Assembly (NCBI GenBank): GCA_038872135.1
Contig: JAVZGN010000002.1
Span: forward strand, 41,368 to 105,367
Length of the DNA: 64,000 bases
Direction of reading: 5' to 3'
Source of the DNA: Candidatus Hadarchaeales archaeon
GTDB lineage: Archaea > Hadarchaeota > Hadarchaeia > Hadarchaeales > Hadarchaeaceae
Each line of letters begins with the position of its first letter. The stretch's first letter is position 1. The translations under genes and the position numbers were made by a program. Shown one piece after another: positions 32,805 through 58,724 of this stretch. The notes under the pieces were generated by a model. That model was not told the DNA's origin, made no database searches, and saw only the letters and a list, made by a program, of their open reading frames with translations.

Positions 32805-35800
32805 ATGGTGGCCACCATAGGCAAATTTAGAGATGGGGATTGGCCCCCTGCCAACTATTCTGGGACAGTTGAAGACAGGCGGGGGGCCCACTCTCCCCAA
32901 TCCCGAATCACTAATGCTAAATTAAATGACGTTCCTTTATCTGAAAAAGCCCTTTCTATATCCATGGTGATTTTAATTCTCCTCTCAACATTTTCCCCAA
33001 TGCTTCATCTGCCGCTGGCTTCTGCCGGAAGTCTAGTCGATAATTCAACGGAAAACTTTGCTCTGGGAGTCCACGAGAACACAGAAAACATCGCAAATAG
33101 GATAAGGCTCAAATCTGGGTACACTTCCGGCCAGTTCACCTCTCAGATTTTCGATGCTGGCGTCTGGGCCCATTGGGAGACCATGAACTGGGTGGAGAAC
33201 GAGCCATTCCTACTTATCCAAGAGAATGACGATGTGGGGGCCGAGCCGGAAACTCTGGCTGACGGAAGTTTGAGAAGAGGAGAGATCCTAGGCGGTTCGA
33301 TCACAGATGTGAGGGTGTTGGACGGAGTTTATGAAAACATTGGGGAGAACACCGAGGACAACTGTCTGAATTGGGAACACAAGATCGAGAACATTACCTT
33401 CGGCTTTGAGAACTATGTGTTGAAGATCAGGGGATACACTGGAGGGGATTATGAGAATGTAGGCATTTACATCTGGGAAAATCAAGGAGCAACATGGGGG
33501 TGGAGGTTTATCGACAATTTAACCTCCACCGAAAAGACAATCGAGTGGACAATTCCCAGAACTTCCATAGAAAATTACTTAGTCAGCGGCGCTATTTTAA
33601 TCAGATATTTCGAAAACAACACCGATGCCACTCAGACTTGGGTTGTCGTCGATCTCTGCATCCTCTCTGGGGAGAACAGGATTTTTTCAGAAGTGAAGAT
33701 TCAGGTTAGGGTTAGCTCAGACAACGTGGTGTGGACTGGGTGGGCTGGCCCAAGCGGAGACGACACAACATTTTTCACTTCTTCCCCGGCAAATCTCACA
33801 CCAATTCTCGACAGAAGATATATCCAGTACAGAGTTTACTTCACCAGTCCCTCTCCATCCCTCAGCGGAGGAGATGGGCCAACTTTCGGTGAGGTGGTGA
33901 TAAACTACTCCCCGGTCAGCCCACCATCTCTTCAATCGCCCTCCAATGGCTCCTGGACAAACGACAACACCCCAACATTTGATTGGAGTGATGTAGAGGA
34001 TGCCACAGAATATCATCTTCTGGTGGACAACGACTCCAACTTTTCATCCCCAGAGATAAATGTCTTAGTGGCCTCAAGCCAATTCACCTCAGCCACCGAG
34101 CTGCCAGATGCAACATACTACTGGAAGGTCAGAGCAAAAGTTGGCAGCGACCTCTCAACCGCCTTCTCCGCACCCTGGACGGTCAACATCGCCACAGCTC
34201 CACCGACCCCACCATCTCTCATCTCGCCGGACAACGATGTTACCCTCTTCGTCGACCAGCCACTCTTCAGATGGACCATCTCAACTGGCGTGGGTGCAAT
34301 TACCTACTGGCTTGTCATAGACAATGATCAGGATTTCTCCTCCCCGATCTACAACAAAACTGGAATCTCGGAGAACTCTCATGTAATTGAAAACAAACTT
34401 CCGGAGAACTTCACTCCCTACTACTGGAAGGTTGCCGCAGTGGACAACATCGGAAACCTGAGCTGGTCTGAGTGGAGGAAGTTTGAACTGAAGGTTTTCC
34501 CGTCTTCAGTTGTCGGCCAGATCTCTCCCTACTGGCAAACAGCGCCTGTAAGCATCTCAGTGACGGCAAGTGACAACGATGGAACAATTGAAAATGTCGA
34601 GCTGTGGTACAGGTACTCGGTGGACAACTCTGAGTGGGGCCCGTGGACCTTTTATGAAAACCGCTCCTCCCCGCCCTACTCCTTTACCTTCAACTTCCCA
34701 AATGGCCAGGGCCTTTATGAGTTTTACTCGATAGCCTGGGACTCTCGCGGGAACCGGGAAAATACCCCGCCGACCCCGGACACTGCCTGTGGATTTGACA
34801 ACGCTGCCCCGCCCGCCCCAACTCTGATTCAGCCGGAAAACGATGCTGTGATCGAAACACGGAAACCAACTTTCCGGTGGACCTCTGTGACCGATCTCTC
34901 CGGCGTCACCTACAATTTGATTGTGGATAACGAAAATACTCTAGCTCCCCCACATATTTACTTTAAGACAGGAATAACGGAAAACTCTCACACAACAGAA
35001 AACTCTCTCGACATTGGGGTATATTGGTGGAAGATTGTAGCGAGGGATGCTGTGGGAAATGAAAATTCTGAGAATGTTTTTATCTTCACGCTTAGACTCT
35101 GGAACAACGTTGAGAGATGGTCTGGGGTGATAAAAACAATTTCTGGGTGGATGACAGCCGAAGTTTGGTCTGTAACAATAAATGCACCTTATGGTGTTTA
35201 TGGATATCTGCTTGTAGAAGAATGGTCGGCTGTTGTTAATGCTCCACCACCTGTTTTCACAATTGTAGAGAGCTGGACTACCACTGTTGCTAGTGAAATC
35301 TCTGAATGGAAAGTTGTGGAATCATGGACGGCCAGCATCGGGAGTGGTGGGGGATGGATGCTAGCAGAGAGTTGGATGAGTACAGTGACGGCTCTCCCGC
35401 ATATTGGGTGGTCGCAGGTTGAAACCTGGAGTTTCACAGCGGTAACACTTGCAAGATGGGAACTCGTAGAGGGATGGAATGCTTCAATCACGGCTGCTGC
35501 GTATCTCGGCTGGCCGCAGGTAGAAATGTGGTCGGTGACAGTAGATGCCCTCCCCTATGTTGAATGGGTGCAAGCTGAGATCTGGGCGGAAACATTGACA
35601 ACCTCAGCCCAATGGTTTGTATGTGAGAGCTTCGCTGCGGATATCGTCGCTAATGTGGTCTCGGGATGGACATTTGTGGAAACTTGGACCCCCACCCTAA
35701 CCTCGGTAGTGTTGAGTGGATGGACACTGGACGAAAGCTGGATTGCTACGATTACCGCGGAGATCCTTCAACCGGTTCTCCTCCTGCCCCTAGACGGGGA

Positions 35801-38800
35801 GAACACCAACAACACAAACCCAACTTTCGACTGGGAGGACAACACCCTCCCGATAGACAACTTCGAGATTCAGATAGACGATGACCAGGACTTCTCGCCC
35901 CCGCTTGTGAGATGGGAAAACACTGGGGCGACGAGCCAGTACAGCCCCGGCTTCCTTCCTGATAACCTCTACTGGTGGAGGGTTAGGATGTGGAGGGGAG
36001 GGGTGCCGGGGGCCTGGGCTCAGAGAACTGTAAGAGTTGATACACTGCCACCAGAGAAACCATCTCTCCTCTCCCCCCTAGATGGAGAAAACGAAAATGA
36101 CAGCGCACCTAATCTCCGGTGGAGCGCCCCGCCCGAGAACTCCTTCCCGCTCACTTATTTTGTCCAAATCTCCAACTCCAAATACTTCGAGCCGGAAAAC
36201 ATTGCCACAAGCGCTTGGGTGATGGAAGAGAACTGGGAGGTGCCACCGGTGCTTCAGGAGAATGTATGGTACTGGTGGAGGGTGCTTGTGAAAGACAATG
36301 CTGGAAACACAGGGGACTATTCATCTGCCAGAAAATTCAAGATAGACACCATAGCACCGCCACCGCCCACCGTCATCTGGCCGGAGAACGACGGGTGGAC
36401 GACTACCCTGCCGAACCTAGACTGGGCGCCGGTGGTTGAAAATTCCCTCCCGGTGGTCTACTTCGGAGAAATTTCACTTTTCCCAGACTTCTCCGGCAGC
36501 CCGCTCAGAACCATTTCAACGCTGGACGACAACTGGAGCGTTTCACCGGAACTCTCAGAGGGCACATACTTCTGGAGGCTTAAGGTCAGGGACAATGCAG
36601 GGAACTTGGGAAGCTGGTCGCAGGGATTTGTCTTCAAAGTTGACAACACGCCACCAACCGCACCACAGCCACCCTTCACGCCACCAAACAACGGCTCAGC
36701 GCCCACTGGGTTGGTTCAATTCCAGTGGGCGGCGGCCTCCGACAGTGGCTCGGGCGTTGCAAAATACGCGATTCAGATAGATGATGAACCTAACTTCAAC
36801 CCACCGCTTGTGCATGAAAATGACAACGTTGTTGGAACTGCATACTCTTGCCTACTTGAATTTCCGAAGACATATTACTGGAAGGTAAAAGCCATTGATA
36901 ACGTTGGCAACGAAGGGGAGTGGTCTGAGACCCTCAGTTTCTTTGCCACCACCGTCTGGAGGTCCATTGAGAGCTGGACGGGCACAATAGCTACCTCTGC
37001 CGCCTATCAACAGGCCGAGTCTTGGGTAGCCACCATCATAACTGTTGCTCAGTGGACGCCAATTGAATTTTGTGTAGGAACGATCGCCACCAGCGCTTCC
37101 TGGAAGTCTGTTGAGAGCTGGACGGCAACAATAACCACTACAGCCACATGGCAGTTTACTGAAACATGGAGTGGTATAATTGCTACCGCAGCTGCTTGGC
37201 GGTTTGCTGAGACATGGGCTGGTACAATTGCTACTGCTGCTCAGTGGCAGCTAGTTGAATCATGGCAGGTAACCATTACAACATCGGCTCAGTGGCAGGT
37301 TGTCGAGAGTTGGACTGGAACGATAACGACTTCTGCTTCATGGCAGCAGGTTGAATCGTGGACTGCCACAATCGCTACTGCGGCCGTCTGGCAGGTTGTT
37401 GAATCCTGGATATGCACGATAAAGGTTGGTGGAGAATGGAAACTAGCAGAAAGCTGGTCCGTTAATATTGCCCCGCCTGCCGACTGGAACTACATTGAAA
37501 CTTGGGCGGCAAAAATTATCGCTATCATTCCCGCTCCAATCCCAGTTTCCCCGCGTAATGGAGAGAACAAAAACACGCTTCCAACCCTCCGCTGGGACAA
37601 CCTTCTCCCTGCAGACAACTTCCAGCTCCAGATAGACAACAACCCAGACTTTTCCTCACCAGAAAACGACCTTACAGTCTTTGAGAACTTCTACACACCG
37701 CCAGCCCTCCAAGACAACCTCTGGTACTGGAGAGTTAGGACATTCAGGAACAACGAGAACTCTGCTTGGTCCACTGTGTGGAAGTTCAGGATCGACAGGC
37801 TTGCTCCTGGAAAACCTGTGCTCGTTTCACCGAGCGATGGGGAGAACATCAACGACAACACTCCACTCTTCCGCTGGCAGGCCCCACCAGAAAACTCCTT
37901 CCCGCTCGTCTACACCATCCAGATATCCACAACTTCAACATTCGCTCCCGGAACATACAACGAGTTCGCCGTTACCTCTTACGAGCAGGAAGTGGGCTGG
38001 ATGGTTCCGCAAGAAAACCCCTTGGCCGACAACATCTACTACTGGAGGGTAAAGGCAAGAGACAACGCAGGCAACGAGGGAGCATTCTCTACACCCAGAA
38101 AGTTCAGGGTTGACACTGTTTCGCCAGTCATTACCCTCATCTCGCCGGCAAACGGTGAAACCGTCAGCTCGAGACCAACTCTGAGCTGGTCCCTCGTTTA
38201 TGCCGAAAATACCTTGCCCGTCGTCTATAACGCTTTGATCTCTGACACCAGCACCTTCGAATTCAGCTATGAAAATGTGAAAATAACCGAGAACTCATAC
38301 ACCACCCAGCCACTCGACGAAAGCGTTGGAACATATTACTGGAAGGTTTGCGCATGGGACAATGCAGGAAACTGGAGCGGATGGTCCGAGACGAGGTGGT
38401 TCACAGTCAGAACTGCGTGGAGACAGGCTGAGAGCTGGAACCTCATGCTGACTACTTCTAGCCAGTGGAATCTGGCTGAAAGCTGGTCTGCCGCTGCTAC
38501 GACTTCGGCCGAGTGGAGACAAGTTGAAGCATGGGGTACAGTGCTCAGTACAACTGCTAAGTGGTCGCAGGTTGAAACATGGCAAGCAACAATGGTCGCT
38601 TCTGCTAGCTGGCAACAGGTTGATGGCTGGGCTGTAACTCTAATAACCGCCGCAAACTGGCTCCTCGCTGAAACATGGCAGGGGATTGCAACGACTACCG
38701 CAAAGTGGTTCTCAACAGAATCTTGGACAGGGGCAGTAGCCACTGTCTCTATCTGGCAAACTATAGAGAACTGGTGGGCTATGGTAACTGCTCCAGTTTA

Positions 38801-41800
38801 TCATGGATGGATTAACGCTGAAAGTTGGAGCGGATACGTATCGTCTGGGGGTGGCTGGGTCCCCGCCGAATTCTGGAGCGCAACTATCGAAGGATGGGCT
38901 TTTTGGAAGATTGTTGAAAGCTGGTCAGACACGATAAACGCTAGCGCAGGTTGGAAAACCACTGAAACATGGCAAGTTCAAATATACTCGCCAATCCCAG
39001 CACCTGTTCTCATCTTCCCGCCAGATGGCTATAACTTCAGCCCAAGTGTCGGAGAGCTTGTGCTTAAGTGGGACAACTCGCAGCCGGCAGACAACTTTGA
39101 GATTCAAATAGACAACGATTTCGACTTTTCTTCCCCAGAAGTAGACGATTTCACCTCTACCGAAAACTTTGTGGTCCCGTCCCTGCCTGACAACCTCTAC
39201 TGGTGGAGAGTAAGGACCTTCAGAACTGGCGAGAATTCTCAGTGGTCCGAGGTTTGGAGGTTCCGCATCGATAACATTCCCCCAGCTGTTCCTTCCCTCC
39301 TCGCTCCTTCAGAAGGGGAGAACATCAACGATAACACTCCGCTTCTTAGGTGGCAGGCCCCGCCCGAGAACTCCTTCCCGCTCAGATATAGGGTTCAGGT
39401 TGCTACCGACAAATTCTTCACAAACATTGTGAGGGAGGCTCTCTGGACGGTCACGGCGGAGAACTGGGAGATCCCGGCCGAAAACTCGCTGCCAGACAAC
39501 ATGTACTACTGGAGAGTCGCGGCAAAAGATAACGCGGGCAACTACAGCATGTTCTCCTCCTATAGAAGCTTCAGGGTCGACACCCTCAAGCCCGCGGTTC
39601 CATCTCTCACTTCTCCACCCCATGGAGCTTGGATCGCCTTCCCATCTCTCACGTGGAGCAAAGTAACCGATATCTCTCTCCCGCTTCTCTATAACCTTCA
39701 GATAGCCTATGACAACGACTTCTCCCATCTCGTTGTGAACGTGGAGCTTCTGGATAACTCCTGGAGCGGGCCACTGGATGAGGGGTTATACTGGTGGAAA
39801 GTTCAGGCGAAAGATGGAGCCGGCAACCTGAGCGGATGGTCGGAAAACCGGAAGTTCATCGTTGACAACGCCCCGCCGACAAAGCCGGTTCTCTCTACAC
39901 CTGAAAACAGCACAGATGTGAATATAGGGACAATAACATTTGGATGGCAGGCTTCTGATCCTGGAGCTGGAATTTCAAAATACTGGATTCAGATAGATAA
40001 TGAACCTGACTTTGATAACACCTTTTTCGTGCACGAAAATCAGATGGTCACAGAAAATACCTATCAGTACATCATCTCAGTGAGCGGAAGATATTATTGG
40101 AGGGTAAGGGCAATAGACGGGGCTGGAAACATCGGTGAATGGTCGGACAACTGGAACTTCTTCGTATATGGCTGGAGCTCCATTGAAAGCTGGATGGCAA
40201 TGATCAGTGGGCCGAGCCAGTGGAGAAATGTTGAGAGCTGGAATGCAACTATCAAAACTAGGGCTTATATCTGGGAAAAGCTGGAGAACTGGAGCGCCAG
40301 CATTCAGGCCCCATTTTTGGCAGGGTGGAGTTTTGTGGAAAGCTGGCAGGTAGAATTCATTTCCGTTACAGTATCTTGGAGAGGTGTTGAAAGCTGGAGA
40401 GCGATTATAACTGGAAGAGTGATTGCTCCGGTACTTCTCTCCCCCTCGAATGGCCTGAACACATCTCAGAACCCACTCACATTCAGGTGGGAGAATGTCC
40501 ATCTCGCTGACAACTACAGGATCCAGATAGATAACAAGTCCCCGGTGGTTGCTTACGAAAATGACAATGTGGGGGCCGAGCCGGAAACCCTGGTTGACGG
40601 AAGCTTGAGAAGAGGAGAGATCCTAGGCGGCTCGATCACAGATGTAATGGTTCTGGACGGAGTTTATGAAAATATTGGAGAGAACACCGAGGACAACTGT
40701 CTGAATTGGGAACACAAGATCGAGAACATTACCTCCGGCTTTGAGAACTATGTGTTGAAAATTAAGGGATACACTGAAGGAGACAATGAAAACATCTTTG
40801 TGTACATCTGGGAGAATGACTTTGGGACTTGGAGATGGCGAGAAATTGGAACCATCACCTCAAATGAAACAACAATCGTCTGGGAAATGAAATACACAAA
40901 CATCGAGAAATATTTGATGGATGGCTCGATTTATGTCAGATATCTTGAAAACACTCCAGACTTGGTGCAAACGGTTCTTCACATAGATCTCTGCGTGCTG
41001 ATGGAAAATCTCGAGAATCTGACTCCACCATTTTTAGTTGACGCAACGAGCACTGACAACTTCTACACCTACACATTCCCCGAGAATGGGAGATACTGGT
41101 GGAGAGTAATGGCAATGGTCCAGGGGATTGTCGGAGATTGGTCAAACATCTGGACGGTTCGAGCCGATACTGTTGCTCCACAGCCGCCAATCCTGATATC
41201 CCCAATCCACCATGAAAATGTTAATGATACTACTCCACTTCTCCGCTGGCAGGCCCCGCCCGAGAATTCTCTTCCCGTGAAATTCTTTGTTCAGGTAGCA
41301 ACCGATCCAACATTCAATACTATCATTAGAGAAAACTGGGTTGTTGGAGAGCAATGGGAGGTGTATCCGCCACTACAGGAAAATGTTTACTACTGGATGG
41401 TGCTTGCGGTTGACAATGCAGGAAATTCCAGTCCTCCCTCTCCAACCTGGGAGTTTAGGGTTGACATAACATCTCCCGCCACGCCTGAACCCAAAGCCCC
41501 CCGTGATGGAGAAAATCTGAATGACAACACCCCAGAACTAGTGTGGACTAGTGTTTGGGATGATTCTCGGCCAGTAGTCTATCGCATTCAAGTAGCTTAT
41601 GATGAGGCATTCCAGTTTATGGTTCCTGGATGCGATGTTTATGTCTATGAAAACACTTGGACAACTCCCGAGCTTCCCAGCGAGAGAGTGTATCGATGGA
41701 GAGTCAAGGCCATAGACAATGCTGGAAATGAAAGTGGATGGTCTCCAACTCAAAGATTCAGGTTCGACTGCAGCCCGCCACTCCCCCCATCTCTTATCTC

Positions 41801-44390
41801 CCCAATGCCTGGCGAAAATGTTGGTAGCTCGACTCCAACCTTCTCTTGGGCGGCCCCATTCGAAAACTCAACCCCGATAAAATACTATCTTTCCATCAGC
41901 GATAATGAAGACTTCCCATACGAGAACGAAAACTCTGGATGGATCTCCTCAACTTCTTGGATAGTACAATCTCCTCTCTCAGACGGCATCTGGTACTGGA
42001 GGGTGAAGGCAAGAGACAACGCCGGCAACGAGGGAGCATTCTCTACACCCAGAAAGTTCAGGGTTGATACGCTTCCACCCGAGAATGTTTCTCTGCTGGA
42101 GCCGGAAAATGGCACGACGGTAGGTGATAACACTCCACTGCTGAAGTGGTCTAGTGCGGTAGACAACTCCCTTCCGGTAAAGTATGTTGTGGTTGTAGCT
42201 CGCGACCCCGCCTTCGCAGATAATGTCATCTCCTCTCCTTGGCTCGACAATGAAAATTGGGAAATCCCACTGGGGCTCTTGGACAACACATACTATTGGA
42301 AGGTGAGGGCGAGAGATAACGCAGGAAACATCTTTGAAACGCCATCTTGGTGGTTCATCGTTGAAAATGCCTCGCCCTTCATGCCACAGCTCGTCAGGCC
42401 TGCAAACGGAGCATGGGAAAACGACAACACCCCGACCTTCAAATGGGAAAACGCATGGGACATTTCACAACCAGTGGAATATTTTGTGTGGCTCTCCACC
42501 GACAACCTCTTTGAAAACATTGTACTCACCAGTGGCTGGGTGGAGAACGAGAACTGGACGGTTCCGGCGGAAAATTCCCTCTCGGATAATGTAAAATATT
42601 ACTGGAGGGTTCAGGCAAAAGACAACACCGGAAAGCTCAGCGAGAATTCTGAGACATGGTGGTTCATCGTCGACGTGGTGGTTCCGCCAAGGATAAACCT
42701 CTGGTCGCCGCCTAACGACGCCGTCTTCGAGAAGCTCACGATCACCTTCACTTGGGAAAGTGTGACCGATAATTCTGGAGTAACCTATCACATAGAAATA
42801 GATAATGAGCCCAGCTTCTCTAGCCCACTTGTGGATAGTAGATATACCACCAACGCCGTCCTGCCAAGTTACACCTTCCAAAAAACAGGGTGGTACTACT
42901 GGAGGGTAAGGACGATAGACGGAGCTGGAAATATCGGTGAATGGTCGGACAACTGGGTGATTTTGATTGGTAGATGGACTTTTCTAGAGCGCTGGAACGA
43001 GATAACAATCATTAGCCAGCCCACGGCGTGGAAATGGATAGAATCATGGGGATTAACTATAAAGGCTCCAAGCGGCTGGACCTTGGTCGAGAGCTGGCAG
43101 GCCACAGCCGTCGGAGCAATCCGATGGAGAGTTGCCGAAAGCTGGTCACTGAGCATTAGGACTAGGCCCTACTACTGGACTAAGGTTGAGGCATGGGAGA
43201 ATGTGGCAACATTGAGAGGATACCCGATTCCAGTTTGGAGATTTGCTGAAAACTGGGGAGGGATATCAATCATTTCTCTCCCACGTGAATTTAGATTTGT
43301 TGAAACTTTCAATGCTCAGATAAGGGCTCCGGCGGAAATAATTGACTTCCTCACCGCCATTGAGCGGCCACCGCCAAAGTGGGAGGAAATAGAGAAGATG
43401 CATGCGACCTTTAGGGCAAAAGAGCCGCTGCCAGGAATCCCTGTGACCGTCGGAAGGGTGATGCCCGGAACTACTTCAACGGCAGATTTTTCCGCCTTCG
43501 ACATCCCAGTGATCAAGATTGAAATAACTCTTAAGCCAGACGCCCCTGCCACAGAGATCGCTCCGATCGTCCTCTCAGCCAAGGCCGTTGACAACATCCC
43601 AGGAATATCTGGTCCTCCGGGCGAAACATACAAATTCTTGGAATTTGGTGTGGATGGGATACCACCGGAATACATTCAGAACTTCAGGGTGCGGTTCAGG
43701 GTTGAAAAGAGGTGGCTTCTCGGGATGGATGAGAAAACTCTCGAGGTGGTGAGGCTGAGCGGCAATTGGGTGCGAGTACCTTTTGAACTAATTAGCTCAA
43801 CTGAAGATTACAACATATATGAAATGGCTGGCGATGTCTATTCGACCTTTGCGATAATAGCGCAGAAAAAGACGCTACCACTTCAAGCCCCGCCGGTCGT
43901 CTTGATTCCAACTGGAGAAGCCCCATCCCCAAGTCCCATTGGATTATTTGTGCTTCTCGGCATAGGCGGGATAGCAGTGGGGCTGATGTTCTATCGTTCT
44001 GTCGCGAAAATAAGAATTGGCGGACTTGAGAAAGAGCTTGAGAAGCTCCAAAAGGCGCCTCCGACAAAAAAGGTGGCGGTGAGAGGTGTAAGGATAACGC
44101 TTCCCAAAGTGGAAAAAATGGAGATTAAGAGGATTGCCAGAGCGATTTGGGGTCCACCGCCAATCCCGAGAGTTCCTCCGCCTGAAAGACGCCTGGCCCC
44201 GCCAGAAATCGCGGCTGTGGAAACTCTCGAGAAGTTCATCGCTGAAAGGAGAAAGAAGGCGCCGAAAATAGCGGTTGAAAAAATTGAAGAGGTGAGAAAA
44301 AAGCTGAGCAAGGAGGAGATTGAGGTTTTCAAGACCCTAGAAAAATTTGTTGGAAAGAGAAGGAAAGCCATGAAAAGAGGAGGTGGATGA
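32805..44390 (+). CDS. giant cell-surface protein (3,861 aa): signal-like N-terminus, unknown ~150-aa domain (x2), ~35-40 fibronectin-III-like modules, five blocks of a 16-aa Trp-periodic repeat, C-terminal TM anchor and basic tail
   Basis: Uninterrupted 11,586-nt ORF. Hydrophobic segment MVILILLSTFSPMLHLPLASAG (alternative ATG at 32964). Fn3-like modules end in ...YYW[RK]V[RK]A.DNAGN.S.WS....F.VDT.[AP]P. Many N-x-S/T sequons. C-terminal TM IGLFVLLGIGGIAVGLMFY followed by a K/R-rich tail. Confidence 0.8.
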   Translation: MVATIGKFRDGDWPPANYSGTVEDRRGAHSPQSRITNAKLNDVPLSEKALSISMVILILLSTFSPMLHLPLASAGSLVDNSTENFALGVHENTENIANRIRLKSGYTSGQFTSQIFDAGVWAHWETMNWVENEPFLLIQENDDVGAEPETLADGSLRRGEILGGSITDVRVLDGVYENIGENTEDNCLNWEHKIENITFGFENYVLKIRGYTGGDYENVGIYIWENQGATWGWRFIDNLTSTEKTIEWTIPRTSIENYLVSGAILIRYFENNTDATQTWVVVDLCILSGENRIFSEVKIQVRVSSDNVVWTGWAGPSGDDTTFFTSSPANLTPILDRRYIQYRVYFTSPSPSLSGGDGPTFGEVVINYSPVSPPSLQSPSNGSWTNDNTPTFDWSDVEDATEYHLLVDNDSNFSSPEINVLVASSQFTSATELPDATYYWKVRAKVGSDLSTAFSAPWTVNIATAPPTPPSLISPDNDVTLFVDQPLFRWTISTGVGAITYWLVIDNDQDFSSPIYNKTGISENSHVIENKLPENFTPYYWKVAAVDNIGNLSWSEWRKFELKVFPSSVVGQISPYWQTAPVSISVTASDNDGTIENVELWYRYSVDNSEWGPWTFYENRSSPPYSFTFNFPNGQGLYEFYSIAWDSRGNRENTPPTPDTACGFDNAAPPAPTLIQPENDAVIETRKPTFRWTSVTDLSGVTYNLIVDNENTLAPPHIYFKTGITENSHTTENSLDIGVYWWKIVARDAVGNENSENVFIFTLRLWNNVERWSGVIKTISGWMTAEVWSVTINAPYGVYGYLLVEEWSAVVNAPPPVFTIVESWTTTVASEISEWKVVESWTASIGSGGGWMLAESWMSTVTALPHIGWSQVETWSFTAVTLARWELVEGWNASITAAAYLGWPQVEMWSVTVDALPYVEWVQAEIWAETLTTSAQWFVCESFAADIVANVVSGWTFVETWTPTLTSVVLSGWTLDESWIATITAEILQPVLLLPLDGENTNNTNPTFDWEDNTLPIDNFEIQIDDDQDFSPPLVRWENTGATSQYSPGFLPDNLYWWRVRMWRGGVPGAWAQRTVRVDTLPPEKPSLLSPLDGENENDSAPNLRWSAPPENSFPLTYFVQISNSKYFEPENIATSAWVMEENWEVPPVLQENVWYWWRVLVKDNAGNTGDYSSARKFKIDTIAPPPPTVIWPENDGWTTTLPNLDWAPVVENSLPVVYFGEISLFPDFSGSPLRTISTLDDNWSVSPELSEGTYFWRLKVRDNAGNLGSWSQGFVFKVDNTPPTAPQPPFTPPNNGSAPTGLVQFQWAAASDSGSGVAKYAIQIDDEPNFNPPLVHENDNVVGTAYSCLLEFPKTYYWKVKAIDNVGNEGEWSETLSFFATTVWRSIESWTGTIATSAAYQQAESWVATIITVAQWTPIEFCVGTIATSASWKSVESWTATITTTATWQFTETWSGIIATAAAWRFAETWAGTIATAAQWQLVESWQVTITTSAQWQVVESWTGTITTSASWQQVESWTATIATAAVWQVVESWICTIKVGGEWKLAESWSVNIAPPADWNYIETWAAKIIAIIPAPIPVSPRNGENKNTLPTLRWDNLLPADNFQLQIDNNPDFSSPENDLTVFENFYTPPALQDNLWYWRVRTFRNNENSAWSTVWKFRIDRLAPGKPVLVSPSDGENINDNTPLFRWQAPPENSFPLVYTIQISTTSTFAPGTYNEFAVTSYEQEVGWMVPQENPLADNIYYWRVKARDNAGNEGAFSTPRKFRVDTVSPVITLISPANGETVSSRPTLSWSLVYAENTLPVVYNALISDTSTFEFSYENVKITENSYTTQPLDESVGTYYWKVCAWDNAGNWSGWSETRWFTVRTAWRQAESWNLMLTTSSQWNLAESWSAAATTSAEWRQVEAWGTVLSTTAKWSQVETWQATMVASASWQQVDGWAVTLITAANWLLAETWQGIATTTAKWFSTESWTGAVATVSIWQTIENWWAMVTAPVYHGWINAESWSGYVSSGGGWVPAEFWSATIEGWAFWKIVESWSDTINASAGWKTTETWQVQIYSPIPAPVLIFPPDGYNFSPSVGELVLKWDNSQPADNFEIQIDNDFDFSSPEVDDFTSTENFVVPSLPDNLYWWRVRTFRTGENSQWSEVWRFRIDNIPPAVPSLLAPSEGENINDNTPLLRWQAPPENSFPLRYRVQVATDKFFTNIVREALWTVTAENWEIPAENSLPDNMYYWRVAAKDNAGNYSMFSSYRSFRVDTLKPAVPSLTSPPHGAWIAFPSLTWSKVTDISLPLLYNLQIAYDNDFSHLVVNVELLDNSWSGPLDEGLYWWKVQAKDGAGNLSGWSENRKFIVDNAPPTKPVLSTPENSTDVNIGTITFGWQASDPGAGISKYWIQIDNEPDFDNTFFVHENQMVTENTYQYIISVSGRYYWRVRAIDGAGNIGEWSDNWNFFVYGWSSIESWMAMISGPSQWRNVESWNATIKTRAYIWEKLENWSASIQAPFLAGWSFVESWQVEFISVTVSWRGVESWRAIITGRVIAPVLLSPSNGLNTSQNPLTFRWENVHLADNYRIQIDNKSPVVAYENDNVGAEPETLVDGSLRRGEILGGSITDVMVLDGVYENIGENTEDNCLNWEHKIENITSGFENYVLKIKGYTEGDNENIFVYIWENDFGTWRWREIGTITSNETTIVWEMKYTNIEKYLMDGSIYVRYLENTPDLVQTVLHIDLCVLMENLENLTPPFLVDATSTDNFYTYTFPENGRYWWRVMAMVQGIVGDWSNIWTVRADTVAPQPPILISPIHHENVNDTTPLLRWQAPPENSLPVKFFVQVATDPTFNTIIRENWVVGEQWEVYPPLQENVYYWMVLAVDNAGNSSPPSPTWEFRVDITSPATPEPKAPRDGENLNDNTPELVWTSVWDDSRPVVYRIQVAYDEAFQFMVPGCDVYVYENTWTTPELPSERVYRWRVKAIDNAGNESGWSPTQRFRFDCSPPLPPSLISPMPGENVGSSTPTFSWAAPFENSTPIKYYLSISDNEDFPYENENSGWISSTSWIVQSPLSDGIWYWRVKARDNAGNEGAFSTPRKFRVDTLPPENVSLLEPENGTTVGDNTPLLKWSSAVDNSLPVKYVVVVARDPAFADNVISSPWLDNENWEIPLGLLDNTYYWKVRARDNAGNIFETPSWWFIVENASPFMPQLVRPANGAWENDNTPTFKWENAWDISQPVEYFVWLSTDNLFENIVLTSGWVENENWTVPAENSLSDNVKYYWRVQAKDNTGKLSENSETWWFIVDVVVPPRINLWSPPNDAVFEKLTITFTWESVTDNSGVTYHIEIDNEPSFSSPLVDSRYTTNAVLPSYTFQKTGWYYWRVRTIDGAGNIGEWSDNWVILIGRWTFLERWNEITIISQPTAWKWIESWGLTIKAPSGWTLVESWQATAVGAIRWRVAESWSLSIRTRPYYWTKVEAWENVATLRGYPIPVWRFAENWGGISIISLPREFRFVETFNAQIRAPAEIIDFLTAIERPPPKWEEIEKMHATFRAKEPLPGIPVTVGRVMPGTTSTADFSAFDIPVIKIEITLKPDAPATEIAPIVLSAKAVDNIPGISGPPGETYKFLEFGVDGIPPEYIQNFRVRFRVEKRWLLGMDEKTLEVVRLSGNWVRVPFELISSTEDYNIYEMAGDVYSTFAIIAQKKTLPLQAPPVVLIPTGEAPSPSPIGLFVLLGIGGIAVGLMFYRSVAKIRIGGLEKELEKLQKAPPTKKVAVRGVRITLPKVEKMEIKRIARAIWGPPPIPRVPPPERRLAPPEIAAVETLEKFIAERRKKAPKIAVEKIEEVRKKLSKEEIEVFKTLEKFVGKRRKAMKRGGG
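33222..33680 (+). repeat. copy 1 of intragenic duplication (unknown ~150-aa domain of the giant protein)
   Basis: About 90% nucleotide identity over the first ~230 nt with 40556..41012, including a 55-nt exact run gagaacaccgaggacaactgtctgaattgggaacacaagatcgagaacattacct. Confidence 0.8.
35095..35770 (+). repeat. W16 block 1: ~14 tandem 16-codon (48-nt) Trp-periodic repeats inside the giant ORF
   Basis: Protein repeats such as VESWTTTVASEISEWK / VESWTASIGSGGGWML / AESWMSTVTALPHIGWSQ... with Trp at i and i+6 in each 16-residue unit. Ends at ...ILQPVLLLP before the next Fn3. Confidence 0.75.
36950..37535 (+). repeat. W16 block 2: ~12 tandem 16-codon Trp-periodic repeats (cleanest block)
   Basis: WQFTETWSGIIATAAA / WRFAETWAGTIATAAQ / WQLVESWQVTITTSAQ / WQVVESWTGTITTSAS / WQQVESWTATIATAAV / WQVVESWICTIKVGGE / WKLAESWSVNIAPPAD... 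The 48-nt periodicity is visible in the DNA (tggcag...gaatc/gtgg...). Confidence 0.85.
38410..39000 (+). repeat. W16 block 3: ~12 tandem Trp-periodic repeats
   Basis: WRQAESWNLMLTTSSQ / WNLAESWSAAATTSAE / WRQVEAWGTVLSTTAK / WSQVETWQATMVASAS / WQQVDGWAVTLITAAN ... Ends at ...YSPIPAPV. Confidence 0.8.
40170..40430 (+). repeat. W16 block 4: ~5 tandem Trp-periodic repeats
   Basis: WSSIESWMAMISGPSQ / WRNVESWNATIKTRAY / IWEKLENWSASIQAPFLAG / WSFVESWQVEFISVTVS / WRGVESWRAIITGRVIAP. Confidence 0.75.
40556..41012 (+). repeat. copy 2 of intragenic duplication (unknown ~150-aa domain)
   Basis: See 33222..33680. Protein NDNVGAEPETLVDGSLRRGEILGGSITDVMVLDGVYENIGENTEDNCLNWEHKIENITSGFENYVLKIKGYTEGD... versus the N-terminal copy. 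Confidence 0.8.
42970..43345 (+). repeat. W16 block 5: ~8 degenerate Trp-periodic repeats
   Basis: WTFLERWNEITIISQPTA / WKWIESWGLTIKAPSG / WTLVESWQATAVGAIR / WRVAESWSLSIRTRPYY / WTKVEAWENVATLRGYPIPV / WRFAENWGGISIISLP... Confidence 0.7.
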
Positions 44391-45081: not shown

Positions 45082-45879
45082 TTGGCGGACCGAAAGATGA
45101 AACAACCTTCAATACCTGAACTTTTGAGACCGAAGCGAGAAAGGGGAATAGAAATAAAACCGAAACATGGGAGAGTGGTTGGGCTTTTTTCCTGCAAGGG
45201 AGGTGTTGGAAAGACTACCACCACGGCAAATCTCAGTCTCGCCCTTTTGGAAAAACTTGGAACGAATATCTTGGCTTTCGACGCAAACATCGGTGCCCCT
45301 AACCTTGGACTGCATTTTGGCGAGCTAACTCCAAAAATAACAGTTCATGATGTCATCTCCGCGGAGCTTCCGGTGGAAAATGCTATTCTCACAGTTCAGG
45401 GGTTGAAGATGATTTTGGGATCGATAGCCTTTGAAGATGAAGTTCACCTGGTAGATCTCAGGGAGCTGATAAACCCCTTGAGAAAGATGTTCAAACTTGT
45501 CATCGTCGACTCTGCCCCGGGGATAGGAAGCGAGGTGGTCGCCGCCCTGAAGGCCTGTGACGAGATAATAATTGTCACGGACCCATATGTCCCAACGATC
45601 GCAAGCACATTGAAGACATTTCGGGCAGCAGAAAAATATAAGGTTCCAATCTTCGGTGTTGTTGTGAACAGGGTGGCGGGGGACCCGTTTGAGCTTCCGA
45701 TCAAAGAAATAAGAAAGGCATTAGGGTGGCCTGTGGTGGCGGTGGTCCCGGAAGACAAGAAAGTGAGGGAAGCAACTGCTGCCGGCATCCCTGTAGTAAA
45801 ATATGCGCCGAAGTCGCCGGCCGCCAAAGAGTTTGTTATGCTGGCGAACACTGTGTATGAACATCTCAGAAAGGGGTAG
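45082..45879 (+). CDS. MinD/ParA-family P-loop ATPase (archaeal MinD-like)
   Basis: 265 aa. Deviant Walker A LFSCKGGVGKTTT, Walker B/VIVDSAPG, standard MinD-like layout. Confidence 0.85.
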   Translation: MADRKMKQPSIPELLRPKRERGIEIKPKHGRVVGLFSCKGGVGKTTTTANLSLALLEKLGTNILAFDANIGAPNLGLHFGELTPKITVHDVISAELPVENAILTVQGLKMILGSIAFEDEVHLVDLRELINPLRKMFKLVIVDSAPGIGSEVVAALKACDEIIIVTDPYVPTIASTLKTFRAAEKYKVPIFGVVVNRVAGDPFELPIKEIRKALGWPVVAVVPEDKKVREATAAGIPVVKYAPKSPAAKEFVMLANTVYEHLRKG

Positions 45880-54130: not shown

Positions 54131-55414
54131 GTGGAAAAACAAGAAATAATTCCAAGGGATATTTTAACAAAATTCGAGAAATTGCTAGAAAGACGAGAGG
54201 CTCTTGCGATAAAAGGTCCCCGACAATCGGGGAAGACAACTCTTTTGAAAATCTTGGCGAGAAGACTTGAGAACGCAGGCAAAGTCGTTTTTCTGAATTT
54301 CGAGGACCCCGATGTGCTCGAAGCCTTTGAGAGGGACCCCAAGGGTTATGTGCGGAGCTTCATGCTCGGTCCCGAAAGGCATTACTTCTTGATGGACGAG
54401 TTCCACTACATCAGTGAACCTGGAAAGAAACTCAAGTTACTCTACGACACCTTCGAGAATGCGAAGTTCATCGTCACCGGTAGTTCCTCCCTAGAACTCG
54501 GTGGGGCGATGGCGAAATTTTTGGTGGGTCGAGTGTTTTTCTTTGAGTTGCTTCCCTTCAGCTTCCACGAGTTCCTAGTGGCAAAAAACGAGAGATTGGC
54601 TAAGATTTATGAGAAAAAGAACGAAGCCATCAAAGCCTTCATGCTGGGAGAAGAAGTAGAACTGGAAGAAGATATCTTCGTGAAAGAGCTTGAGCCCCTT
54701 TTCCTTGAGTACCTCACTTACGGCGGCTATCCGGCTGTGGTCTTGGCTAACGATGCGGAGACAAAGCGAATGATCCTGAAAGGCATATACGATACATACA
54801 TTTCCAAAGATGTGATTGAGTTTTTGAAATTCACCGACGCGTTCAAGTACAGAGATACTATCAGGATCCTAGCAGCGTCGGTTGGAGGATTGCTAAACTA
54901 CCAAGCGGTGGGCTCGGCGGTCCAAAGCTACTTCAAGGAGCTGAAGCGGATCCTCTCGATTCTCTCCGAAACGTACGTGATAATCTTGCTCCGACCATTC
55001 TCAAGGAACCCGAGAACCGAGCTAAGGAAAAGCCCAAAGGTCTATTTCTTTGACTTGGGGCTCAGGAACTATGTGCTAAACAATTTTAACCCACTCGACA
55101 GGAGGGCTGATGCCGGAGCGATGGTTGAAAACTTCGTGCTGCTGGAGCTAATGCGTGCCTTCCCAGCTGAGTCCTTAAATTACTGGCGGACGATAGCAAA
55201 AGCCGAGGTAGACTTCGTGCTGAGGGTCGGGGAAAAATTGATACCGATAGAGGCCAAATATCAAAGTTTCGCGGAACCAAAAATCTCAAGAAGCCTCCGG
55301 AGCTTCATCCACACTTACAGCCCAGAGCGCGCTTTGGTTGTGACCCGCGATAGGTGGGCGAGGAGTGAAATTGATGGAACAAAAGTGCTTTTCGCTCCCG
55401 CCTGTTACATTTAA
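54131..55414 (+). CDS. AAA+ ATPase with C-terminal DUF4143 domain (AAA_14/DUF4143 family)
   Basis: 427 aa. Walker A GPRQSGKTTLLK, Walker B FLMDEFHY, C-terminal DUF4143-like region (WRT...EVDFVL). Confidence 0.85.
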   Translation: MEKQEIIPRDILTKFEKLLERREALAIKGPRQSGKTTLLKILARRLENAGKVVFLNFEDPDVLEAFERDPKGYVRSFMLGPERHYFLMDEFHYISEPGKKLKLLYDTFENAKFIVTGSSSLELGGAMAKFLVGRVFFFELLPFSFHEFLVAKNERLAKIYEKKNEAIKAFMLGEEVELEEDIFVKELEPLFLEYLTYGGYPAVVLANDAETKRMILKGIYDTYISKDVIEFLKFTDAFKYRDTIRILAASVGGLLNYQAVGSAVQSYFKELKRILSILSETYVIILLRPFSRNPRTELRKSPKVYFFDLGLRNYVLNNFNPLDRRADAGAMVENFVLLELMRAFPAESLNYWRTIAKAEVDFVLRVGEKLIPIEAKYQSFAEPKISRSLRSFIHTYSPERALVVTRDRWARSEIDGTKVLFAPACYI

Positions 55415-58125
55415 CGATGCACAAGCTTGGATTCTTCCTCATGACCTAATCTTAGGCCGCTTGAGATTTCGGGGAGACTCTTCTTCCCGAGCCTGAGGTA
55501 CCTCCACACAACAGCTAAAACAACGATTGAAAGGACTATGAAGGCGGCCACAATGAGGTAGGGGGACGAAACACCGGCTAGAGGAACTGTCGGCATCGTA
55601 GAAATTGTGATGGTGTGAACGGAGAAGTAAGGGATTGAGACGATAACTTGGATCCCTCTGCCTCCCTTCACCAAATAATATTCTGGTAAACCATTGTCAT
55701 TTGTCGGGTCGAGGGCATCTACATAATCATCTGCAAGGGCTATTTCAACGTCATTGAGGAGGACCCTAGCAGTCCATCCCGCCGGGAGCACTCGATTTTC
55801 AACATTTATCACAACTGTTGTGCCATTTTCCATCGAGCTGATGTTCTCCACGACGAGCTCTACTTTTTCACCGAATACTACCGTGCCGAGTGTTATCCTG
55901 AGGTCCTTGTGCTCGTATCCCCTTGAAATTCCCGGTTTTTCAGCTTCAATTCTGATAGCCACGACCGCTCCGAGATTTCCCCTTAGGAAGGCATTTTCCA
56001 GCTCCCTCAATTTCTCCTCTTCAACTGGAACTCCGATATCAGCAGCCTGCTCGATAAAGTTGTTTTCCATGACTTCCATTTTCTGCTCTACCAGCTGGCT
56101 CACCACCGTAGCAGTGGAAATAGCAGTGGTAGCAGAATAGATGTTGTCGCCGGCAAAAAATGCGGTTATAGTGGCAGTTGTCTGATTTTCCACAATTGGG
56201 GCTGTGAAGATGACCGTGGCCTGCCCAGAGTTGTCAGTACTGCTGGTGAAGTAGCTGAGGCTTCCGAGGGTTGTTGACCAGGAGATGATTTTGCTGGAAA
56301 GTGGAAGCCCTCGCGAGGTGAGCTTGACGATCAAAGTCTCGGTCTTTCCAGATCCTATTACGAAACTTGCCGGGGAAATCGTGAGGGTTGTGGGAGCCGG
56401 GGTTATCGTCACCGTCAGACTCGCATTGCTCGAATAATAGCTCGCATCCCCGGCGAAAGAAGCCGTGACCACAACATTTTCGGATGCCGCGACACCTTGG
56501 GCAATGTAAATAACTGAGGCATTGCCATTCCCATCGGTTGTAGTGGCGGTCGCCGAGAGAACACCTTTTGCAACACTCCAGGAAATGGTCTTTCCTGAAA
56601 GGACCAACCCATTCGCGTCTTTGAGGGTAGCCGTCAGCATCACCGAATCGCCGGGTAAAATGCTCAGGCTAGAAGGAGCTATCGTTAAAAAGGTGGAGAT
56701 TCTTGAGGGGGGAGGGGAGGGCGTTGTAATTCTCGCGCTCCGGCTTTCGACCATCTGAAACCAAGTTGTTGTCGTAACAGTTGCACTCCTGCTCTCAGCC
56801 AGAGTATACCACAAAGCTGTTGTGATTGTAGCAGCCCAATTTTCGGCCAGCTGAAACCATGCTGGTTCTTTTGGCCCTATTTGCACGGATGGCATAGGAT
56901 CTATCGACTTTCGAAGAATTTTCCAGACATCACGCCTGTAATTCCCATCGTAACCTCCCATCACCCAGACTGCATCTTTGAAAACAACTGATGAGTGTTC
57001 ATATCTCGCGCTCCATGTGACTCCGGTCAATTTCGTCCAGCTTGAGCCATTTTCTGAATACCAAATGTCGGAAAGATATTCCGCCCACAACTCCCCATTG
57101 CCACCAATAACCCACATCCGGTTGTCAAAAACAACTGAAGTGTGATATCTCCTGGGAGTCCAGCCGCCATTTCCAGTCGCTTGGAACCAGTTTTCACCAT
57201 CTGAAGAGTACCAGACATCATTCTTGAAAGCACCGCTTGAGTATCCTCCAATCACCCACATCCTGTTGTTGAAGACCACCGAGGAATGGCTGTGGCGCGG
57301 GCTCCAAGGGGCTGCTGAAGTAACCTGACACCAGTTAACACCATCACTAGAATACCAGACATCATTCTTGTAGTTGCCATCATAACCTCCGATTACCCAG
57401 ATTTTACCGGCAAAAACAATCGAAGTGTGGCCCCATCTCGCCGACCATCCTGGAGAAGATGTTGCGAGTATCCAGTTTTCGCCATTCTCCGAATACCAGA
57501 CCTCAGAGTCTGGGCCACCGATTACCCACATCCGATTGTTGAAAACCACCGATGTGTGATTTCTTCGCGAAGTCCATCCCGCATTGTCAACAACTAGCAT
57601 CCAGTTAACTCCATCGGCTGAACACCAGACATCATTTTCTGCGTTTTCAGCCCCTCCTCCAATCACCCAGATTTTATTATCAAATACGAGGGAAGTGTGG
57701 GCATACCTTGGAGACCAGCCGGCATCTGCCGTCGCCTGAACATCAGCATACGGAAGAATAGTGTTCTCCCAGCTGCTCACATTTGTGGCCGTGGGATTTC
57801 CATAGTAAACGTAAATCGTGTTGTCGGAATTTTCAGGCCTCCGCACCCAAATAGTCGCGTTGTCTGGGGTGTAGTTCTCGACCCAGAAATTGAGAAGGCC
57901 GAAATTATCGTTCTCCAGAAACCTTAGATCTCTGAAGTCTGGTTGCATCTCAGCGTAGAAGGGGAGAATTATCTTCAGATGAATATTCTCGGGATGAGGG
58001 GAAATTGTGATGGCCCTCCTCCTCGTCCAACTCTCATCCCACCATCCGGCGGCTGCTGCGTAGGGAGAACTTAGAAGCATCGACAAGAGAAAAATCACTA
58101 AAAACGCCCGCGAAAACCGTTGCAT
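55411..58125 (-). CDS. cell-surface protein: signal peptide, DUF2341-like domain, six-blade Kelch-type beta-propeller, 3 W16 repeats, Ig-like (Big) domains, C-terminal TM anchor
   Basis: Trimmed to ATG 58125 (MQRFSRAFLVIFLLSMLLSSPYAAAAG). That ATG sits 2 nt after the stop of 58128..58724. Contains WWDESWTRRRAITI (DUF2341-like) and six repeats W.[PA]R..H[TS]S[VLI]VF.N..WVIGG......ND[VI]WYS.DG.NW. C-terminal TM YLIVAAFIVLSIVVLAVVW. Confidence 0.75.
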   Translation of the reverse strand: MQRFSRAFLVIFLLSMLLSSPYAAAAGWWDESWTRRRAITISPHPENIHLKIILPFYAEMQPDFRDLRFLENDNFGLLNFWVENYTPDNATIWVRRPENSDNTIYVYYGNPTATNVSSWENTILPYADVQATADAGWSPRYAHTSLVFDNKIWVIGGGAENAENDVWCSADGVNWMLVVDNAGWTSRRNHTSVVFNNRMWVIGGPDSEVWYSENGENWILATSSPGWSARWGHTSIVFAGKIWVIGGYDGNYKNDVWYSSDGVNWCQVTSAAPWSPRHSHSSVVFNNRMWVIGGYSSGAFKNDVWYSSDGENWFQATGNGGWTPRRYHTSVVFDNRMWVIGGNGELWAEYLSDIWYSENGSSWTKLTGVTWSARYEHSSVVFKDAVWVMGGYDGNYRRDVWKILRKSIDPMPSVQIGPKEPAWFQLAENWAATITTALWYTLAESRSATVTTTTWFQMVESRSARITTPSPPPSRISTFLTIAPSSLSILPGDSVMLTATLKDANGLVLSGKTISWSVAKGVLSATATTTDGNGNASVIYIAQGVAASENVVVTASFAGDASYYSSNASLTVTITPAPTTLTISPASFVIGSGKTETLIVKLTSRGLPLSSKIISWSTTLGSLSYFTSSTDNSGQATVIFTAPIVENQTTATITAFFAGDNIYSATTAISTATVVSQLVEQKMEVMENNFIEQAADIGVPVEEEKLRELENAFLRGNLGAVVAIRIEAEKPGISRGYEHKDLRITLGTVVFGEKVELVVENISSMENGTTVVINVENRVLPAGWTARVLLNDVEIALADDYVDALDPTNDNGLPEYYLVKGGRGIQVIVSIPYFSVHTITISTMPTVPLAGVSSPYLIVAAFIVLSIVVLAVVWRYLRLGKKSLPEISSGLRLGHEEESKLVHR
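56715..56865 (-). repeat. three units of the same 16-residue Trp-periodic repeat as in the giant protein
   Basis: WFQLAENWAATITTAL / WYTLAESRSATVTTTT / WFQMVESRSARITT, between the Kelch propeller and the Ig-like domains. Confidence 0.7.
56890..57725 (-). repeat. six tandem Kelch-like blade repeats (~130-140 nt each) within the surface-protein gene
   Basis: Recurring protein units ...W[ST][PAS]R..H[TS]S[VLI]VF[NDAK]..[MI]WVIGG... visible as DNA periodicity. Confidence 0.75.
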
Positions 58126-58127
58126 GA

Positions 58128-58724
58128 TTAGCCCCATAGCCATAGACTTACAGTAAATCCTGCATAAGAGCCAGCGGGCAACTTCCATCCCGTTCCATTA
58201 TTGTCGAACACTGCATTTATCCTCACATATCCGTTGGCCGTCCCATACCCGGAGTTTTCAAAAACATATTCAATCAAGTCGGTTGAGTTATCATGCCAGC
58301 TGAAGCCTGATGTCCATTGCAACTCAACCTTTACATTTTCTTTTGAAGCGTAGGCTGGTGGATCTCCATCCAAATTTATTGCATCTGCCCTCACAGCCGG
58401 CACCACATCGAAGGGGGTCTCATAGGGGATATCAACAGTCTGACCGGGCCCAGTTATTACATCTAGACAATAGTTTGTATTTCCCGCATATTGACCAAGC
58501 CAGCTATTTTTATCATATCCAGAACCATGCTTCATTATATAGATGTTTTCAAACCCATCGGTGTTTTCTGAGATAAAAGAGTATCCACTTCCGCTCCAGA
58601 CGGCAACGAGTCTCCACCGAGGTCCCTGAACAATCGATTCTTTGGCAGGGAGATATGAAGTGATAAGTAAAACAGCGATTACCAAAGTAGCTAAAATTCC
58701 TGCAGCCTGCCATCTTCCAATCAT
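58128..58724 (-). CDS. single-pass membrane protein; paralogue of 44383..45033
   Basis: 198 aa. N-terminal TM WQAAGILATLVIAVLLITSYL. Shares ENIYIMK, GPGQTVDI and YVFENSGYGTANGYVRINAVFDNNG with the other copy. Stop is immediately adjacent to the start of the downstream surface-protein gene. Confidence 0.6.
   Translation of the reverse strand: MIGRWQAAGILATLVIAVLLITSYLPAKESIVQGPRWRLVAVWSGSGYSFISENTDGFENIYIMKHGSGYDKNSWLGQYAGNTNYCLDVITGPGQTVDIPYETPFDVVPAVRADAINLDGDPPAYASKENVKVELQWTSGFSWHDNSTDLIEYVFENSGYGTANGYVRINAVFDNNGTGWKLPAGSYAGFTVSLWLWG

Follow-up and report, generated by a model that had tools for sequence, protein, structure and literature searches.

A predicted Hadarchaeota surface protein with a DUF2341-Kelch head, Big_1 domains, and a membrane-proximal C-terminal domain, encoded beside a conserved small membrane protein

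DUF2341 proteins (arCOG03508) encoded in the epd loci of Methanococci have been proposed to be pilus-tip adhesins (PMC4858521), and a screen for transformation-defective Methanococcus maripaludis mutants yielded a DUF2341 protein with several insertions (PMC10133366). In the intimin/invasin adhesins, tandem Big_1 domains form a rigid stalk that carries a distal binding head. Archaeal PGF-pre-PGF/PGF-CTERM (archaeosortase) proteins carry variable heads on a conserved membrane-proximal beta-sandwich, which is followed by a C-terminal hydrophobic helix and basic residues. Kelch domains occur in bacterial secreted or surface proteins (for example P0004, P0014, and P0019, as well as proteins of Planctomycetota, Sumerlaeota, and Wallbacteria), and we know of no functionally characterized member among these relatives. 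This study compared these systems with a reverse-strand gene at 55411-58125 in a 64,000-nucleotide stretch of DNA (hereafter the window) from a Candidatus Hadarchaeales archaeon (assembly GCA_038872135.1, contig JAVZGN010000002.1, positions 41,368 to 105,367). Hadarchaeota are uncultured archaea of the subsurface and of hot springs, and a literature search on their surface proteins found nothing relevant.

The 904-aa product of this gene (hereafter the target) is probably a Sec-exported, type I-anchored, stalked, and non-enzymatic surface binder, either adhesin-like or receptor-like. From the membrane outward, a basic tail and a transmembrane (TM) helix are followed by a membrane-proximal C-terminal domain (CTD), which would act as a common "foot"; two Big_1 domains and three units of a Trp-rich 16-residue repeat (W16) would form a stalk or spacer; and a six-bladed Kelch propeller capped by a beta-rich DUF2341 domain would form the distal head. 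The head would act as a non-catalytic binding unit, the ligand of which could be a glycan, a polymer, or the surface of another cell. A small membrane protein with an N-terminal anchor, encoded 2 nt upstream, is probably expressed together with the target; it may be an accessory or docking protein and may contact the target physically. Modular adhesin-like surface proteins are a well-known kind, and the target is not mechanistically surprising; what is new is the combination of domains and three undescribed modules, namely the CTD, W16, and the partner domain.

The bacterial Kelch proteins are extracellular and modular, as the target appears to be, and share with it the blade consensus W.xR.xH[ST]SVVF..[KR]MWVIGG...NDVWYS.DG.NW. 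Unlike the target, they lack W16, the CTD, the TM foot, and, except for P0047, the DUF2341 cap, and several carry further accessory Pfam domains. The Methanococcus epd proteins likewise place DUF2341 in a large archaeal extracellular protein with an inferred adhesin-like role, whereas the target has no pilus locus and instead carries a Sec signal peptide, a TM anchor, and a Kelch partner in its head. Tandem Big_1 domains that would hold a distal head are shared with intimin and invasin, but the target has neither the outer-membrane beta-barrel anchor nor the C-type-lectin tip, and its orientation is reversed, with an N-terminal head and a C-terminal anchor. The NCBIfam intimin equivalog scored the target at 31.6 against a cut-off of 1400, which places it outside that family. 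The layout logic of the PGF-CTERM proteins is the same as that of the target, but the target has a 29-residue tail after the TM helix and no visible PGF or PEF motif. NCBIfam at E<=0.1 listed no archaeosortase-substrate families, although short models can escape the hmmscan filters. Given this 29-residue tail, and the continuation of some CTD relatives into a cytoplasmic domain, the helix would be a permanent anchor.

Domain architecture and the DUF2341-Kelch head

The target gene comprised the following features (window coordinates; residues numbered on the 904-aa protein).

55411..58188, reverse strand: open reading frame (ORF) from the first ATG, 925 aa
55411-58125, reverse strand: target protein from the preferred start, Met22, 904 aa
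58045..58125, reverse strand: Sec-type signal peptide, residues 1-27, with R3 and R6 in the n-region, a hydrophobic core, and AAA before G
57730..58044, reverse strand: DUF2341-type domain (Pfam PF10102), residues 28-132, including the N-terminal WWDESWTRRRAITI motif
56905..57729, reverse strand: six-bladed Kelch beta-propeller, residues 133-407 (Kelch_1 x6, PDB, Foldseek, DSSP of the model)
56719..56862, reverse strand: three W16 units, AWFQLAENWAATITTA / LWYTLAESRSATVTTT / TWFQMVESRSARITTP, followed by a Pro-rich hinge (regular expression and spacing)
56401..56703, reverse strand: immunoglobulin (Ig)-like domain 1, Big_1 (intimin/invasin type), residues ~475-575 (Pfam, AlphaFold2, Foldseek)
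56101..56400, reverse strand: Ig-like domain 2, Big_1, residues ~576-675 (Pfam, AlphaFold2, Foldseek)
55576..56100, reverse strand: CTD, unannotated, residues ~676-850 (~175), two-helix hairpin and beta-sandwich
55501..55569, reverse strand: single C-terminal TM helix, residues ~853-875, hydropathy up to 2.9, helix 182-206 in the CTD model
55411..55500, reverse strand: basic cytoplasmic tail YLRLGKKSLPEISSGLRLGHEEESKLVHR and stop codon, with positive-inside residues directly after the TM helix

The longest ORF starts 21 codons before Met22 and overlaps the partner gene (58080-58188 region). The ATG at 58125, which is Met22 of this ORF, follows the stop codon of the neighboring upstream ORF (58128..58724) by 2 nt and yields a complete classical Sec signal peptide, MQRFSRAFLVIFLLSMLLSSPYAAAA followed by GWWDESW. 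A 100% identical protein from a Hadarchaeales metagenome-assembled genome (MAG) at NCBI (P0001), named only "DUF2341 domain-containing protein", has 889 aa and begins 15 residues later at MLLSSPY, which truncates the signal peptide. Because the P0001 start falls inside the signal peptide and Met22 gives a full one, Met22 was taken as the start; in the orthologue alignment, the N-termini were equivalent to the signal peptide of the target. The full architecture was found in four clusters (P0001, P0002, P0003, and P0005), the last three of which are 47-67% identical.

A hydropathy scan revealed just two hydrophobic segments, residues 6-27 and ~853-875. With only these two, and with RYLRLGKK following the second, the target is predicted to be a type I (N-out/C-in) protein with a large ectodomain. 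This ectodomain is acidic (pI 4.9) and contains 2 Cys. The cytoplasmic tail is 29 residues long with no domain matched, and the orthologues too have short tails that show little conservation. These tails argue against a TM sensor, in which ligand binding by the head would be signalled across the single helix; HTH-like cytoplasmic tails of ~80 residues in the relatives P0043, P0145, P0037, and P0066 favor such a role, but for the target itself we consider it highly improbable.

An earlier note on this DNA had described the target as a signal peptide and a DUF2341 domain followed by six Kelch blades, then W16 units, a pair of Ig-like domains, and a TM anchor, and the Pfam matches, hydropathy, and spacing agree with this description; the DUF2341 and Kelch assignments in particular were supported by the Pfam scan. 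The note had passed over the CTD, the ~175 residues between the second Ig-like domain and the TM helix. At the DNA level, Tandem Repeats Finder detected no tandem repeats of blades or W16 units, so the blades would be old duplications, with no sign of recent amplification or slippage variation. A sigma-70 promoter and terminator scan was uninformative for an archaeon.

Pfam matched DUF2341 (PF10102) with 50.9 bits (gathering cut-off 23.4; E 2.3e-13), aligning residues 63-133 to positions 1-75 of the 84 in the profile. The WWDESWTRRRAITI motif, of the W..W.[YR]R..I[ST]I type, lies N-terminal of and outside this model and was invariant in the orthologues; the earlier note took strand motifs of this type to be typical of DUF2341-type domains. 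The DUF2341 region contained many invariant columns across the four orthologues, and a PDB sequence search found no solved relative of it. In a full-length AlphaFold2 (AF2) model, its predicted local distance difference test (pLDDT) score was ~40. This model used only 4 orthologues, a shallow alignment, and reached a mean pLDDT of 58; the Ig domains alone were good, the DUF2341, W16, and CTD parts were unusable, and the geometry of the head was read as strand counts only.

The propeller was recognized both by sequence and by fold. Kelch_1 matched six stretches (E 1e-32; 111.7 bits, cut-off 20.1), and further Pfam matches were obtained with Kelch_KLHDC2_KLHL20_DRC7 (100.5 bits), Beta-prop_ATRN-LZTR1 (85.5 bits), and Kelch_2/4/6. 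The blades start at residues 137, 184, 227, 274, 322, and 371, with a period of 43-49 and pairwise identities of 43-65%. Sequence matches in PDB included LZTR1 (E 3e-21), designed SAKe6 propellers, KLHL12, and Keap1, and Foldseek matched the Kelch domains of KLHL20 and KLHL12. DSSP applied to the low-confidence full-length model gave four strands in each of blades 1-5, three in blade 6, and a separate strand at 127-130. Residues 119-128 (SSWENTILPY.D) were invariant in the orthologues, and the N-terminal strand at residues ~119-130 (SSWENTILPYAD) probably closes the propeller ring.

More than 1000 relatives of the propeller were found, mostly bacterial secreted or surface proteins with Ig, PKD, and other accessory domains (identity roughly 35-59% among the 120 best relatives listed), which suggests that the Kelch propeller is a widely exchanged module. 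Within residues 150-370 (window ~57015-57675), each blade also carries S-x-[DN]-G-x-[NS]-W (e.g., WYSSDGVNW), which we take to resemble the Asp-box/BNR motif known from propellers of the sialidase type; the Pfam scan of the target gave no BNR match.

The same searches bear on whether the target could be an extracellular enzyme, with a catalytic propeller resembling that of galactose/glyoxal oxidase or of the sialic-acid mutarotase NanM carried on a stalk. Pfam Kelch_3/4 are named after galactose oxidase, a bacterial relative (P0105) is named "N-acetylneuraminic acid mutarotase", and NanM is a six-bladed Kelch propeller. However, the galactose oxidase propeller has seven blades, whereas that of the target has six, and the only Pfam families matching the target at E<=1 were Kelch models, DUF2341, and Big_1, with no accessory oxidase family among them. 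NCBIfam at E<=0.1 returned no NanM family, only weak intimin and BamI matches, and the best 60 of 73 PDB matches comprised designed propellers and Kelch domains that bind proteins; neither an oxidase nor NanM was among them. An enzymatic role thus seems very unlikely, and the description "galactose-oxidase-like" in the earlier note holds in name only, through the names of Kelch_3/4. A binding head is the preferred interpretation, and sugars are plausible candidate ligands.

The W16 units, Big_1 domains, and CTD family

The W units of the target are located at residues 423, 439, and 455, a spacing of exactly 16, and match W[FY]x[LMV][AV]E[NS]; the second Trp is kept in the first unit alone. W16 was counted as chains of spaced motifs with a shuffle control, because a hidden Markov model (HMM) of a single unit was too short and missed both the target and P0137. 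A loose chain of at least three units appeared in 30 of 5000 shuffles (0.6%), and two-unit chains were at noise level (25 real versus 31 shuffled). The orthologues contain 2-3 units with a period of 16-19 at the same place, between the propeller and the first Big_1 domain. Searches of Pfam, NCBIfam, and PDB gave no match to the units, which had a pLDDT of ~30 in the full-length AF2 model; their position suggests that they act as a spacer or stalk.

Big_1 matched two stretches of the target (E 2.3e-13), in place of the Big_2/3 type that the earlier note had named. Both Ig domains reached a pLDDT of ~90 in AF2 and matched intimin D0-D1 in Foldseek (E 1e-10).

The CTD of the target carries the motif LADDYxDxLDPTN..PEYxxxKGGxGxQVxVSIPxFSxxTITI and fits the signature of its family, LADDYxDVLDP...PEYLIL.GG.G.QVLVSIP.FS, directly before the TM helix. 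No relatives were detected in Pfam, NCBIfam, or PDB. A phmmer search of 1.84 billion representatives revealed 395 clusters at E<=1e-3, of which 103 passed 1e-10 and 15 passed 1e-30. Among the matches listed, the CTD lay close to the C-terminal end of proteins that ranged from 100 to 1700 aa, and in the members read it was followed at once by a TM helix and basic residues. The heads preceding the CTD in the members scanned included NosD/right-handed beta-helix, Peptidase_C25, FG-GAP, Laminin_G_3, PKD, and W16 arrays, usually with Big_1. With a 39-sequence alignment, AF2 confidently modelled a hairpin of two helices, a beta-sandwich of nine strands, and the TM helix (pLDDT 93.3; predicted template modelling score 0.81), and residues A125, D130, E142, G148, S157, and F161 were invariant in the alignment (A3). 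A scan for the CTD pattern in one genome per GTDB species confirmed five loci. Hadarchaeota/Hadesarchaea MAGs accounted for all five, and two of these genomes carried two loci each.

Because the CTD is C-terminal, precedes a TM helix, and occurs with many different heads, it shows the pattern of a shared anchor beneath interchangeable heads. We infer that the Big_1-CTD-TM foot, rather than W16, defines the family of the target and is a recurrent surface-protein module of Hadarchaeota; this set was defined in the present analysis and is not a curated family. The earlier note had placed the target and the giant protein encoded in the same window in one family of surface proteins that share W16 but differ in their heads. 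W16 arrays of at least three units do occur in the target, in the giant protein, and in a few other proteins (P0137, P0144, and P0196, with long arrays of 30 units in P0137 and 14 in P0144), but the recurrent module is Big_1-CTD-TM, which the giant protein lacks.

Two further observations concern relatives of the target. After the TM helix, two members of the CTD family (P0043 and P0145) and two proteins that combine Kelch and Big_1 (P0037 and P0066) have a cytoplasmic domain of ~80 residues resembling a winged helix or helix-turn-helix (HTH) and ending ...GRGKPSTVYKYVGD; these four are possibly membrane-tethered DNA-binding proteins with huge ectodomains. In addition, a gene with a faint Rhomboid match lies directly upstream of P0144 in two independent contigs (L010:5077-5862 and L011:1381-2166), and its presence may point to cleavage of anchors of this kind within the membrane.

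The small partner gene, the giant W16 protein, and gene context

The genes that accompany the target and the giant W16 protein were as follows.

58128..58724, reverse strand: small partner gene, 198 aa, N-terminal TM anchor and a beta-rich ectodomain of ~150 aa
44383..45033, forward strand: paralogue of the partner, overlapping the 3' end of the giant gene by 8 nt
32805..44390, forward strand: giant W16 surface protein, 3861 aa, five W16 arrays (46 units)

The partner protein had no Pfam or NCBIfam match. A homologue 45-73% identical to it was encoded immediately upstream, on the same strand, at all three of the orthologue loci fetched, so that the partner-target pair is kept in 4/4 loci, with an intergenic gap ranging from overlap to 66 nt. 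Locus L001 shares its flanking genes with the window, PPDK lying to one side and AAA_14/DUF4143 to the other, and the neighbors in L002 and L003 differ. The paralogue next to the giant gene was 41% identical over 132 aa by tblastn (E 4e-19) and was also recovered by HMM (E 1e-85). Paralogous small membrane proteins therefore adjoin both large proteins, giving the target and the giant protein a second shared feature besides W16. The giant protein itself contains seven Ig_Rha78A_N domains, a Big_13 domain, and a pre-TM domain unlike the CTD, and its W16 consensus is W-x-x-[VA]-E-[ST]-W-x-x-T-I-x-T-x-A-x.

A word-indexed protein search placed the close family of the partner in six clusters, and the two source-named ones are Hadarchaeales hypothetical proteins. 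A metagenome scan found 33 more distant loci with the partner domain. At L019 (1338-8160), the domain adjoins a protein of 2080 aa that combines two DUF2341 domains with a beta-helix and W16 chains; at L016 (1-14383), it adjoins a GLUG-motif surface protein of >3300 aa; and at L039 (6923-10414) and L040 (2430-6389), it forms the C-terminal ~135 residues of NosD/CBM96 proteins.

Two specific relationships of the partner were considered and set aside. Recognition of W16 or the CTD was unsupported, since neither the CTD loci L004-L008 nor the W16-rich P0144 had the partner nearby. Comparison of the partner with the CTD and with the giant protein by hhalign gave a probability of <1%, and homology was rejected.

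The neighbors of the target with a family match were PPDK, AAA_14/DUF4143, PCNA, primase, Rrp4, Nre, HAD, and B3_4; three short ORFs had no Pfam match. This context bears directly on whether the target is a tip adhesin associated with type IV pili, as proposed for the DUF2341 proteins of the Methanococcus epd loci. The DUF2341 domain and the arCOG03508 proposal (PMC4858521) speak for that role. The signal peptide of the target, however, is by inspection of the Sec type and not class III, and the protein carries a C-terminal TM anchor. Within ~10 kb on the lower-coordinate side and ~6 kb on the other, there was no match to a gene for a pilin, an ATPase, or TadC, and pilus genes were likewise not matched in L001-L003. 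A role at a pilus tip is thus largely refuted by the gene context, and we give it almost no credence.

The same neighbors lend some weight to the target being a structural or self-binding component of the cell envelope. Its head would then bind the S-layer or surface glycans of its own cell, and the target and its partner would scaffold or space the envelope instead of binding external ligands. The housekeeping neighbors and their synteny (PPDK, AAA_14, PCNA, and primase) suggest a core rather than an accessory gene, the small membrane partner, which is conserved, might serve as a dock in the envelope, and the CTD family has many members and, in the single genome scan made, was found only in Hadarchaeota, where two genomes had two loci each. 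Nevertheless, the heads found on the CTD include a protease, beta-helices, LamG, and FG-GAP, which are typical of outward-facing exoproteins, and orthologues with the full architecture are few (four clusters), which is unexpected for a major envelope protein. We regard the envelope role as unlikely.

The paired genes also raise the idea of an undescribed two-component Hadarchaeota surface system that would include the target and the giant protein, in which the dedicated small partner would dock, assemble, or regulate huge W16/DUF2341 proteins and in which W16 and the CTD would be new structural families. This proposal is possible but doubtful; if it is true, W16 would be a new beta-repeat spacer and the CTD a new archaeal membrane-proximal anchor domain.

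Several observations weigh against the preferred interpretation, a stalked surface binder accompanied by a small partner. In metagenomes, the partner domain also occurs without large neighbors, alone, in tandem pairs, and fused to other proteins, and P0144 has W16 arrays and the CTD with no partner gene nearby. The AF2 model of the head, from four sequences, was poor (pLDDT 40-85). N-glycosylation sequons in the target were at the level expected by chance (10 observed versus 9.5 expected) and thus add no support for a glycosylated surface protein. Since the partner domain is found without large neighbors, the partnership is not obligatory, and the pairing of the partner with large proteins appears, from the loci compared, to be a real but non-obligatory association.

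Three side observations concern the giant cassette. The N-terminal domain of the giant protein, ~160 residues long, has an internal repeat with 68% identity by tblastn (window 32985-33944 and 40527-41000, forward strand), and no family match to it was seen. The cassette is flanked downstream of the partner paralogue by a gene for a ParA/MinD-type P-loop ATPase (45082-45879, forward strand) and upstream of the giant gene by a divergent ORF of 212 aa (32051-32689, reverse strand) with no Pfam match.

Significance for the Hadarchaeota exoproteome

The locus provides a parts list for the exoproteome of Hadarchaeota, consisting of the Big_1-CTD-TM foot, the Trp-rich 16-residue repeat, and the small partner. 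The versions of Pfam, NCBIfam, and PDB searched have no entry covering the CTD, W16, or the small partner, and defining these three families would improve the annotation of several hundred archaeal proteins currently labelled "hypothetical". Such definitions would also supply handles, among them surface epitopes and candidate adhesins, for the enrichment or imaging of Hadarchaeota.

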